Source of the DNA: a virus
DNA: 64,000 nt
Strand: one strand, 5' to 3'
Virus record (IMG/VR): IMGVR_UViG_3300042317_000390
Span: 1-64,000 of that record
In this document: positions 3,704 through 61,477 of the stretch, piece after piece
Layout of the letters: each line of letters begins with the position of its first letter
How positions within the stretch are numbered: position 1 is the first letter of the stretch
Position numbers and translations under genes: made by a program
The notes under the pieces: model-generated
Told to the model about the DNA's origin: nothing
Seen by the model: the letters and a program-made list of their open reading frames with translations, nothing else
The model's database searches: none

Positions 3704-4474
3704 TCATGACCAGAACTTCCACCACCATGATTTAGGTTCTTGTTCTACAACAGAAGATCTATTCCTTGGAAGCCAGTGATCCTCAAATCTTGGCATGTTA
3801 GGATCTAGATCAGGATACCAATACTCTTTCAAAGATGGGAAGTGCATGAGGATTTCTTTCTGTGCTGCTAGAGCAACCTGACGGTGTTCTTTCTGTGTGC
3901 CTTCTTCTGCTCTAACATCAATATAGTGGATAAATGACCTCAACGATCCACTCATATACATTTTAGTCTCAATGAGTCCTTCTGGTAATACTGATCTAGC
4001 GACTTCTTTGGCAATGCCCATGTCAATAGCAAGTTTATATCCTTTTTCAGCGGCACTTCTGATAAGATTTTGCTGCATCTTCCATTGATAATGAACATCG
4101 TCATCATCAGTCTCAATACTATTCTGACGGTTTTTATGATCTTGAAGTCTTGCTTCCCTTGTAACAAAATTCATATCTTGCGTGGGGTCTGCATACCTTT
4201 GTGAGAACTCTTGAAAAGTGAATGAACGGTGTCGAAGAATCTGTCTACCGATATCTCTTGTGGTTGTAATCTCTAACGTAAGGAAGCAATGTTCCATAGG
4301 ACTCCAATGTTTATGCTCAATAAGATATTTCATAAGTTTTGGTGCAGTCATCATATTCAACTGATTTGATGGATTGCTTACACGGGCAACATAAACAATA
4401 TATTCCTCTGGCGTCATACCAGGATAATCTTCTACCATAGGTTTAGTGATTCCAACAATCTTCACATTACTCAT
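3704..4474 (-). CDS. thyX: FAD-dependent thymidylate synthase
   Basis: ARVSNP, HKHWSP.E, signature RHRSFTFQEFSQRY, KEVAR.VLP, TQKEHR. Confidence 0.96.
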   Translation of the reverse strand: MSNVKIVGITKPMVEDYPGMTPEEYIVYVARVSNPSNQLNMMTAPKLMKYLIEHKHWSPMEHCFLTLEITTTRDIGRQILRHRSFTFQEFSQRYADPTQDMNFVTREARLQDHKNRQNSIETDDDDVHYQWKMQQNLIRSAAEKGYKLAIDMGIAKEVARSVLPEGLIETKMYMSGSLRSFIHYIDVRAEEGTQKEHRQVALAAQKEILMHFPSLKEYWYPDLDPNMPRFEDHWLPRNRSSVVEQEPKSWWWKFWS

Positions 4475-5154
4475 TTTCTCTTCCTTCTAGTCATTCCTTT
4501 AGAGAACCCCTCTGGTATTTCGGCATCTATACTTAGAAAGATATTCTTATCTCCATCAGTATAGCATACTCTGCCTTTAGTATTACCATCGGAGTTTTCA
4601 AACTTCTGTTTCATCTTTTGTCTTATCTTGTCCTTACGTTCTTCGTTTTTTTCATCGGAAAGGTTGAACATAGGATTATATATCTTACATCTTTCGCTTC
4701 TATCCGATCGTTCCTCGTCGGTCAAGTTCAAAACTTTACCTTTACCTGCCGCACTTATTGAGTCTTTTATCTGTTGTGCTTTATCTTCACCATATAATTC
4801 TTCATAGGTTTTACCAGTCATAGACTTGTTTCGTTCAATAACTGCTATTCTGTTCTTTTCTCTGGATTTCTCTAACTGGAACGGATGCCTACCATCTTTT
4901 GAAAGTTCTAATTGAGTCTTACTAGAGATTTCCGATCTTTGTTCTGTTGTTAGAGAGATATGACCTGTAACAGACATGGCCCAACAGGCACCATAATCTC
5001 CTTGCGAGTAGTGAATATCATAGTGTTCTTTTGCCGAAACACATTGAAGATTGTCTATGTGATTATTGGAATGATTACCGTCAATATGATGTATATGATA
5101 ACCCTTCGGTATTGGACCGAAATGTTGCTCGTATAGACGGCGATAAATAGACAT
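4471..5154 (-). CDS. HNH homing endonuclease (start moved to ATG 5154)
   Basis: HIHHIDGNHSNNHIDNL..VS..EH motif, basic NUMOD-like tail (GKTYEELYG); AGGAG RBS and late promoter just upstream of ATG 5154. Confidence 0.88.
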   Translation of the reverse strand: MSIYRRLYEQHFGPIPKGYHIHHIDGNHSNNHIDNLQCVSAKEHYDIHYSQGDYGACWAMSVTGHISLTTEQRSEISSKTQLELSKDGRHPFQLEKSREKNRIAVIERNKSMTGKTYEELYGEDKAQQIKDSISAAGKGKVLNLTDEERSDRSERCKIYNPMFNLSDEKNEERKDKIRQKMKQKFENSDGNTKGRVCYTDGDKNIFLSIDAEIPEGFSKGMTRRKRK

Positions 5155-5221
5155 GCTGGCACTCCTAAACAGTGTTAGAGTAGGCGGGACTGGTACTCCG
5201 TGGCCTACAACTCTATTTAGT
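5155..5221 (-). promoter_or_regulatory. T4-type late promoter (ACTAAATA) plus structured leader of HNH gene 1
   Basis: TAAATA box followed by stems TAGA/TCTA, GTAGGC/GCCTAC, GGA/TCC and CACT/AGTG overlapping the RBS. Confidence 0.75.
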
Positions 5222-5427
5222 AAATCAGCACTTTCAGTCATCTTGTTTCCTTCCTTTCCAAAAAAGATATATCTCATCGGAAATTACGGTGTCCATACCC
5301 CAAACATCTACTTCTGCTTTTATAGATTTTGGTAGTTGAGAAGTGTAGATTTCCATAAGTTCTTCATCGGTTCTCAATTTACCATCACATTCATAAAGAA
5401 TGTCATGTAACCGTTCTACATCAATGC

Positions 5428-22209: not shown

Positions 22210-22395
22210 TCAAGCGCCATCCATAACCTCCTTCATAACTCTACGGATCTCTTCAACCAACACCTTACTACACACAGCACAATCTGGTTGCCAATTCATC
22301 ATATTCAAAACCAGTCTTTCGTTTGGTTCATGAACAAATTGAATAGCATCCCTAATTTTTTCAGTGGTTATTTCGTTACAAGAACATACGATCAA
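22210..22395 (-). CDS. bfd: Bfd-like [2Fe-2S] ferredoxin
   Basis: MIVCSCN.IT...IR.AI...CAVC; 61 aa. Confidence 0.82.
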   Translation of the reverse strand: MIVCSCNEITTEKIRDAIQFVHEPNERLVLNMMNWQPDCAVCSKVLVEEIRRVMKEVMDGA

Positions 22396-22952
22396 CTTTG
22401 TTTCCTCTCTTTACATTTATCAAAATGATATCTATACATACTATTGCTTTTTCCAACCTTTCCGCAGTGAGGACATTTATGTATTTTTTGAGTATGATGA
22501 TTGCCTTCTTTTATTAATTTTAAATGAGCGTTTCTTTGCACATTCCCGCCAATTAAAGGATGTAATCCATTTTCTATCATTTTTCTGTTATGTTCAGAGC
22601 CTCTTTCTCCAGAAAAATGATGTTTTCCATTTTTAGATGCTATTTTCATAGGATTACTGTTTCCTATGAAATGATGCTTACCAGACTTTATCCTATCGGC
22701 TTGAACTTTTTTAGATAGTTCTGATAATTGTTCTGAAGACATTTTCATCTTTCTAGACAGCAACCAACAAGCACCCCAATCTCCTTGAGAATGATGTATA
22801 TTGTAATGTTCTTGAATAGAAAGAGCAATTAAATTTGAAGGGTCGTTGTTTTTATCATTTCCATCAATATGGTGAATATCATAAGTTCTACCGTCCTCAT
22901 CTTTAGGAATAGGACCATAATATTGTTCGTAAATACGACGATAAATACGCAT
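22392..22952 (-). CDS. HNH homing endonuclease
   Basis: YDIHHIDGN..NN.P.NL.AL...EH, G.HHF repeats, C-terminal CPHC...YH...C zinc finger. Confidence 0.88.
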   Translation of the reverse strand: MRIYRRIYEQYYGPIPKDEDGRTYDIHHIDGNDKNNDPSNLIALSIQEHYNIHHSQGDWGACWLLSRKMKMSSEQLSELSKKVQADRIKSGKHHFIGNSNPMKIASKNGKHHFSGERGSEHNRKMIENGLHPLIGGNVQRNAHLKLIKEGNHHTQKIHKCPHCGKVGKSNSMYRYHFDKCKERKQS

Positions 22953-23019
22953 AGCTGTGTCTCCCGTTAGAGCATAGAGTCCTTAGAGCGCCAACTCGTG
23001 AAGGACACATCTATTTATA
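22953..23019 (-). promoter_or_regulatory. T4-type late promoter (TATAAATA) plus structured leader of HNH gene 2
   Basis: TATAAATA at 23012-23019, stems TAGA/TCTA, GTCCTT/AAGGAC, GAG/CTC, then GGGAG RBS. Confidence 0.78.
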
Positions 23020-23221
23020 TAATTATGGGTTCCCCAAATATTGCATTAGAGTTTTAAGAAATACATATAGTGCGTTTGCGATTACTGCTGCTTTAAAAGC
23101 TGCCCAACCTAGTGGGTTTAATTTCATTGCACAAATAACGGAACGAAGTGCGCAAGGATAACCCGGAATAAACTAGCAAATAATATAGCAGGAACGATTA
23201 CTCTAGCCCATTCAGGCATAG

Positions 23222-61403: not shown

Positions 61404-61477
61404 TCAGGGATAGTTCAGCGGTAGAACATCGGACTTTGACTCCGATAACCTTGGTTCGAATCCAAGTCCCTGATCCA
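61404..61477 (+). tRNA. tRNA-Gln(UUG)
   Basis: acceptor TCAGGGA/TCCCTGA, D stem GTTC/GAAC, anticodon arm TCGGA-CTTTGAC-TCCGA, T arm CTTGG-TTCGAAT-CCAAG, encoded CCA. Confidence 0.95.

Follow-up and report, generated by a model that had tools for sequence, protein, structure and literature searches.

A portable cassette with two facing late-promoter boxes and a fold conserved on the antisense strand heads nuclease genes of uncultured T4-like phages

Introduction

Homing endonuclease genes are the main selfish elements in T4-like phages. To our knowledge, the way they are controlled has been described for just a few of them, all from coliphages and each relying on a hairpin of its own. The paradigm, which covers I-TevI, I-TevII, I-TevIII, segB and mobE of Aeh1, is a late promoter combined with sequestering of the ribosome-binding site (RBS), and seg43(25) carries an odd hairpin upstream of its RBS (PMC2988022). 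In the insertion sequence IS10, a 69-nt antisense RNA called RNA-OUT blocks ribosome binding to the transposase mRNA (PMC5006887). T4-like phages also contain PeSLs, each made of an early sigma-70-type promoter and a terminator stem-loop, which flank ordinary ORFs (PMC2839356, PMC4122927).

Here, we analyzed the first 64 kb (the window) of a complete 168,653-bp IMG/VR record from a T4-like phage, in which two homing endonuclease genes carry the same leader. Each leader appears to be a copy of a portable, two-faced late-promoter cassette of ~90 bp that forms the 5′ end of the gene. As in the T-even nuclease genes, a predicted late promoter lies directly upstream and a structured 5′ region adjoins it, and copy 1 also has complementarity between promoter and start site. 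Unlike the T-even hairpins, the fold of the cassette is on the opposite strand, and one homologous module, not an idiosyncratic structure, is found in many genes. The arrangement resembles that of IS10/Tn10, in that the nuclease or transposase gene of a selfish element is read from a promoter of its own, with a second promoter, here a candidate, pointing back at it from within the 5′ end of the gene, and in that a small, stably folded antisense RNA, here predicted from sequence, is complementary to the translation start region, as RNA-OUT is. It differs from IS10/Tn10 in that the promoters there are of the sigma-70 type whereas the boxes of the cassette are of the T4 late type, and in that the cassette RNA would have two hairpins and would act on homing endonuclease genes of lytic phages. 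Like the PeSLs, the cassettes are short, conserved, portable regulatory units, repeated through T4-like genomes and tied to modular shuffling; unlike the PeSLs, they have two facing late-promoter boxes and head nuclease genes.

A further case is the antisense RNA CfrI, described by Millard et al. in 2010. CfrI is reported to be an RNA of ~225 nt that lies antisense over a homing endonuclease gene of the T4-like cyanophage S-PM2 and connects that gene to psbA (PMC2984593). The RNA predicted from the cassette would likewise be antisense to a homing endonuclease gene, and the window phage is closest to cyanomyoviruses: by its gp41 helicase, its nearest cultured relatives are Synechococcus cyanomyoviruses, with 62–64% amino-acid identity.

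Two homing endonuclease genes of the window share a leader

Both genes encode I-TevIII-like HNH_3 homing endonucleases on the minus strand. HNH gene 1 (4471–5154) encodes a protein of 227 aa and lies directly upstream of thymidylate synthase, and HNH gene 2 (22392–22952) encodes a protein of 186 aa and lies downstream of a gp41-like helicase and of a UvsX-like recombinase. The two proteins are 53% identical across their first 97 residues, and the start of HNH gene 1 at 5154 is backed by alignment with copy 2 and with relatives. The ORF of HNH gene 1 is open upstream, in frame, to an ATG at 5277 (window 5155–5277, minus strand), where it overlaps a 70-aa upstream gene, so that automatic annotation could call a 268-aa protein that translates the cassette. 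HNH gene 1 and the thymidylate synthase gene overlap by 4 nt (window 3704–5154). Homing endonucleases may repeatedly target the thymidylate synthase gene (td), in which T4 carries its I-TevI intron.

On the minus strand, each leader carries an inward late-promoter box. For HNH gene 1 this is CTAAATA at 5220–5214, followed by the spacer GAGTT and a predicted late-mRNA start at the G at 5208; for HNH gene 2 it is TATAAATA at 23019–23012, followed by the spacer GATGT and a predicted start at the G at 23006. Hairpin P1 comes next; its 6-bp stem and its 3-bp inner stem, which carries the loop, are set apart by a CAC bulge of 3 nt on the 5′ side and a bulge of 1 nt on the 3′ side. It reads GTAGGC-CAC-GGA-loop-TCC-C-GCCTAC in copy 1 (5208–5180) and GTCCTT-CAC-GAG-loop-CTC-T-AAGGAC in copy 2 (23006–22979) on the minus strand, and we call its plus-strand counterpart P1′. 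The original prediction, that both HNH genes share a minus-strand hairpin leader, describes these sequences correctly: all 9 pairs of P1 are kept between the copies, and 6 of the 9 are changed on both sides.

The 3′ part of the leader is TCTAA..AGGAG..CCAGC, followed by the ATG at 5154–5152, in copy 1, and TCTAT..GGGAG..CACAGCT, followed by the ATG at 22952–22950, in copy 2, again on the minus strand. With its Shine–Dalgarno sequence (SD), AGGAG at 5166–5162, the start region of HNH gene 1 covers 5152–5166, and that of HNH gene 2, with the SD GGGAG at 22965–22961, covers 22950–22965. On the plus strand lies a second hairpin, P2′. In copy 1 (5156–5178) its arms are CUGGCACU and AGUGUUAG, and its loop contains CCU, the complement of the gene's SD; in copy 2 (22955–22977) the arms are CUGUG-U-CUC and GAG-CAUAG. 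A plus-strand box, ATAAATA, faces outward from within each gene. In copy 1 it occupies 5143–5149, which are codons 2–4 (TCT ATT TAT), and the predicted antisense start is the G at 5155; in copy 2 it occupies 22941–22947, codons 2–4 being CGT ATT TAT, and the predicted start is 22953 or 22954.

Folded as single sequences, the two copies are only moderately unusual. Copy 1 (58 nt) folds at −20.6 kcal/mol (z −3.8), which none of 200 shuffles equals, and copy 2 at −13.9 kcal/mol (z −1.2), with 24 of 200 shuffles as good.

The cassette heads unrelated nuclease genes

We collected HNH-domain relatives in IMG/VR (347 loci) and took the closest 80 of the 347, most of which have the same leader. A covariance model fitted to the sense strand (R1), built from 15 leaders, matches 68 leaders (49 distinct) at HNH-gene relatives, plus extra copies heading other genes. 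In the window it matches copy 1 over its full extent of 5140–5231 on the minus strand with 81.9 bits and copy 2 over 22938–23029 with 73.9 bits. In the R1 alignment, both partners vary in 13 of 14 pairs, and the cells are 92.6% paired, compared with 68.4% in shuffles, 0 of 500 of which reach 92.6%, and with 30–47% in slid controls. A second sample was obtained with a DNA pattern from the 3′ half of the leader, which fixes part of P2 and finds at least 120 further stretches; 80 loci among the pattern matches listed gave 101 more cassette matches. Together, the HNH-seeded and pattern-seeded samples hold at least 140 distinct cassettes in IMG/VR contigs, which bears out the proposal of a conserved, covarying element. 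The proposed basal stem, TAGA/TCTA, fared differently: it is 67% paired, the same as shuffles (290 of 500), has a G-C pair in just 7 of 49 leaders and lacks family-wide covariation.

A third copy lies in the same genome, outside the window (G000:133549–133640; L084:1501–1592, minus strand). It heads a different gene, of the classical HNH type and 103 aa long, which sits between the major capsid gene and the tail-tube gene but on the other strand; the copy is back-to-back with the tail-tube gene. In T4, segD has a similar position, between genes 23 and 24. The inward TATAAATA of copy 3 is part of the palindrome TATTTATAAATA, which also supplies a plus-strand late promoter 24 nt before the tail-tube gene. 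The idea that copies within one genome have orthogonal stems found no support, as within-locus pairs differ at 2.97 of 9 arm bases and random pairs at 3.35.

Using a Pfam scan of 121 complete ORFs downstream of cassettes, we found HNH_3 in 50, NUMOD3 in 25, classical HNH in 11, GIY-YIG in 7 (plus 1 SegE-type), HNH_5 in 3 and TnsA-like domains in 2. The cassette heads unrelated nuclease families in uncultured T4-like phages and is not HNH-specific. Of the earlier proposal that the motif travels with the HNH family, the part that holds is that it travels with nuclease genes; the tie to HNH does not hold, with GIY-YIG, TnsA-like and other genes headed by it as well. Because the cassette is common to unrelated nucleases, it is unlikely to be a nuclease-specific RNA partner or a site of autoregulatory binding, two roles that had been suggested for it. 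The cassette is also absent from 12 of the 80 closest HNH_3 relatives.

The Rfam check that the original prediction had called for gave no match. A scan of the whole window against Rfam 15 returned only a tRNA gene and no cassette match at gathering score, and permissive Rfam scans of copies 1 and 2 gave chance hits only, with E above 5. The tRNA gene is at 61404–61474 on the plus strand (RF00005, 71.4 bits). Neither megablast of both loci against cultured phages nor blastn of a typical cassette against the cultured-phage collection gave a match. The cassette was not found at the I-TevIII-like genes of cultured T-even phages, S16 and X20, and R1 was null at the I-TevIII of Bp7. A search of S-PM2 (NC_006820) at E up to 1 with R2, the antisense-strand model described below, also gave no match, and the cassette is not homologous to CfrI. 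The cassette is new to the databases and literature searched here. A group I intron context was rejected, since the neighboring genes leave no space for an intron and Rfam gave no intron match, and so were ribozyme classes, of which only Pistol came up, at chance level (E 5.9).

The conserved fold lies on the strand opposite the nuclease gene

The outer stem of P1, read on the sense strand, comprises 840 cells, of which 822 are Watson–Crick, 0 are G·U, 18 are A·C or C·A and 0 are of any other kind. Since a sense-strand A·C becomes a G·U when the opposite strand is read, the antisense strand pairs 100% of the outer stem; the sense strand forms P1 in about 98% of cells. The same pattern is seen in P2, where one pair is C·A in 74 of 140 cassettes and Watson–Crick in the remaining 66, so that it is 100% paired on the antisense strand only. 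When the core was folded on both strands, the antisense strand gave the better fold in 137 of 139 cases, with a mean of −18.4 versus −13.5 kcal/mol. The antisense core is more stable because an 8-bp helix, CUGAUGCU/AGCAUUAG in its common form, closes there via G·U pairs, the sense equivalents of which are A·C mismatches. This helix joins the conserved CAGC to the conserved CUCUAA. TCTA and CAGC, which had been taken to be conserved unpaired motifs, are thus its two arms, and the G·U pairs close it on the antisense strand only.

We also built a covariance model of the antisense strand (R2), with 8 pairs in P2′ and 10 pairs in P1′, which gave 115 distinct rows. R2 matches copy 1 on the plus strand with 82.4 bits and copy 2 with 70.0 bits. 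The R2 alignment was made to fit the antisense fold, but the asymmetry of P1 was seen in the R1 alignments, which follow the sense strand. In the R2 alignment, 98.5% of the 2070 cells of the 18-pair fold are paired on the antisense strand, 239 of them as G·U; for the same 18 pairs, the sense strand reaches 87.5%, and 13 cells are G·U. The 8 pairs of P2′ are 99.3% paired on the antisense strand. Sequences free of mismatches number 88 of 115 on the antisense strand and 0 of 115 on the sense strand. Across the R2 rows, both partners vary in 15 of 18 pairs, and a single G·U, in P2′, is kept in 115 of 115. In the protein-seeded sample, CTCTAT variants go with ACAGC in 8 of 8 cases, and CTCTAA variants have T or C at that position. 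The CRC bulge, CUCUAA and CAGC are conserved beyond the needs of pairing.

These counts and computed folds place selection for the conserved fold on the strand that lies opposite the nuclease gene, so that it is not primarily a structure of the mRNA leader, as had originally been thought. Counting G·U against A·C can, in the same manner, reassign a "leader" to the other strand. An anti-SD role, in which the conserved CUCU pairs with GGAG, was considered and dropped, as GGAA variants, read by eye, are without a compensating change.

Two late-promoter boxes face each other across the fold

In T4, the late box is at −13 to −6 (PMC2988020), so transcription should start six bases after the last A of the box. 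In the genome studied here, 26 of 56 ATAAATA sites precede a gene by at most 90 nt, most of them in the structural region on the plus strand, and ATAAATA appears to behave as the late promoter of this phage. The inward box of the cassette contains TAAATA in 46 of 49 leaders, in keeping with the late promoter that the first description had included in the element, and it is separated from the first G of P1 by a 5-nt spacer in 29 of 49 leaders (the modal spacing).

At the other end of the cassette, TATTTA follows the ATG in 115 of 140 cases, and the other strand there reads ATAAATA, facing the gene's own promoter. TATTTA occurs at three offsets from the ATG, giving the protein sequences x-I-Y, I-F-I or Y-L, and its presence in three reading frames indicates that it is conserved at the nucleotide level. 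The outward box and GCUG, the sense-strand CAGC, are separated by 5 nt in 75 of 114 cassettes, which equals the modal spacing of the inward box and agrees with the T4 rule, and the base before P2′ is G in 114 of 115. Where TAAATA is absent from the outward box (24 of 115, with ATAAGTA, ATATATA or similar), the fold is kept, and 19 of the 24 are free of mismatches. The cassette family, its covariation, the strand asymmetry and both boxes with their spacing are direct observations.

The RNA predicted from the outward box begins one base before P2′ and runs through P1′, followed by A and then ~53% U; this tail is largely dictated by the complement of the inward promoter. A simple scan for intrinsic terminators does not call P1′. 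On the plus strand, which is that of the predicted antisense RNA, a hairpin resembling a terminator and ending in a T-rich tail lies at 23102–23117, ~100 nt beyond P1′ of copy 2 and inside a small minus-strand ORF, but it may be due to chance, as 0.4 such hairpins are expected in 800 nt. Neither copy has a sigma-70-like site within it or beside it; both boxes are late-type. Alternatively, the inverted repeat ATAAATA...TATTTAT, made of A and U only, could form an RNA helix and not include a second promoter.

A candidate antisense restraint on the nuclease and its alternatives

We give an even chance to the explanation that a late cis-antisense RNA of the IS10 RNA-OUT type restrains the nuclease. 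In this mechanism, the inward (N)ATAAATA would drive the nuclease gene, a core of 62–66 nt would follow, and the ATAAATA facing outward from codons 2–4 would give rise to a late RNA whose first base is the conserved G, at 5155 for copy 1 and at 22953 or 22954 for copy 2. The RNA would fold into the 8-bp P2′ with its SD-complementary loop and then into the bulged P1′. By position, the antisense fold spans the SD and ends no more than one base from the AUG. The predicted RNA would be perfectly complementary to the 5′ UTR and SD of the nuclease mRNA, starting beside the AUG, and could pair with this mRNA and limit its translation or stability, as RNA-OUT does for the transposase. We infer three steps: firing of the outward box, formation of a discrete RNA and repression by this RNA. 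Contigs from four candidate RNA data sets matched only in short pieces, at conserved parts of relatives. In copy 1 there is likely a second, classical layer, in which the inward promoter would pair with codons 2–4 in read-through transcripts and hide the start site. Both copies in the window are co-oriented with their neighbors, so that an antisense role is the only one available to them.

One homologous cassette is common to well over a hundred nuclease genes of unrelated families. If the antisense RNA is made, this would amount to a general, transposon-like restraint of the IS10 type on phage selfish genes, and to a large new family of phage small RNAs. Since T4 has the same late-promoter box, E. 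coli infected with T4 offers a setting in which plasmid-borne cassettes can be studied.

It is conceivable, if rather unlikely, that the cassette is a self-contained, bidirectional module for late expression with a dual-role antisense-strand RNA, a new class of small RNA in phages, which throttles the nuclease at the SD and AUG and at the same time is the hairpin-capped leader of a back-to-back gene. Loss of the nuclease gene would then cost the phage useful expression, a form of addiction-like retention. A further explanation, which we regard as unlikely, is that the outward promoter and the antisense fold serve mainly the back-to-back phage gene, as a late promoter and a stabilizing 5′ hairpin leader that "pay for" the insertion, the antisense effect being incidental. 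A longer divergent ORF stands clearly back-to-back with the cassette in 55 of 123 usable cases; a further 37 cassettes are co-oriented and the arrangement of 31 is ambiguous, and a cruder count of orientations gives 80 versus 46. The divergent neighbors are real phage genes (SbcD-like, DNA ligase, baseplate, tail tube). In most resolved loci the outward transcript would enter such a gene, and its main role may thus be that of the gene's leader. Moreover, another outward ATAAATA is present within 80 nt beyond the cassette in just 17 of 139 cases, so the outward RNA would, in many loci, lead the neighboring gene. The ompA-type 5′ stem-loop is an example of a 5′ stabilizer, and an RNA start predicted one base before an 8-bp hairpin has the geometry of one. 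That T4 endonuclease genes can carry promoters for neighboring genes also counts in favor of a service to the neighbor (PMC2988022). However, both window copies are co-oriented, and their outward RNA, antisense to the upstream ORF, would have no gene to serve; copy 3 has its own TATAAATA for the tail-tube gene; and the constant place of the cassette over the nuclease SD and AUG would be left unexplained.

Classical control on the sense strand, as in the T-even phages, seems improbable to us. Here the read-through mRNA would occlude the SD, AUG and first codons by means of the promoter sequence, the late mRNA would be translatable, and P1 and P2 would bring the arms together. The T-even paradigm of late promoter and sequestered RBS is a precedent, and copy 1 fits it: TAAATAGA (5219–5212) is perfectly complementary to TCTATTTA (5151–5144) over 8 bp, and opening the start region costs 12.0 kcal/mol in the read-through transcript versus 4.4 kcal/mol in the late transcript. 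The original prediction had set simple occlusion aside, which was wrong for copy 1; the effect is absent in copy 2 and many relatives, the costs being 8.0 versus 8.6 kcal/mol in copy 2 and about 6 versus 6 kcal/mol in the common GTAGTT subfamily. Across the family, mean opening costs are 9.2 kcal/mol for the long transcript, 6.4 kcal/mol for the late transcript and 7.5 kcal/mol for the long transcript with a shuffled 5′ extension; long and late transcripts differ by at least 2 kcal/mol in 24 of 46. Copy 2 and the cassette of locus L081 can, in addition, pair AUAG.UGUGUC with GACACA.CUAU. Occlusion on the sense strand nevertheless leaves unexplained the asymmetry between A·C and G·U and the extended helix that forms on the antisense strand only.

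It is very improbable that the antisense fold acts as a single-stranded DNA hairpin in replication, recombination or homing, with G·T pairs tolerated. Such pairs are tolerated in the bottom strands of integron attC sites, strand asymmetry alone cannot separate RNA from DNA, and the hairpins keep conserved extrahelical bases. Yet the fold overlies the SD and AUG, promoter boxes flank it on both sides at promoter-like spacing, and we know of no enzyme encoded by these genes that acts on DNA hairpins. Least credible of all is a sense-strand motif specific to the HNH family, whether a nuclease binding site, a processing signal or an RNA partner: although the loop and bulge sequences (CRC, CUCUAA, CAGC) are conserved beyond pairing and the sense strand can form P1 as well, the cassette is found ahead of catalytically unrelated families, is missing from the 12 of 80 closest HNH_3 relatives and from the T-even, S16 and X20 homologues, and the strand test favors the antisense strand.

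Unusual cassettes

Some cassettes stand before ORFs of 4–56 codons or have a degenerate 3′ half. They are located at L104:3253–3347, L119:4538–4628, L142:7889–7982, L146:4395–4488, L065:1397–1489, L117:1043–1133 and L078:866–963, the last having a degenerate 3′ half, and they are probably remnants of decayed nuclease genes. Two other cassettes (L106:1211–1302 and L160:3332–3425) have TTG in place of ATG.
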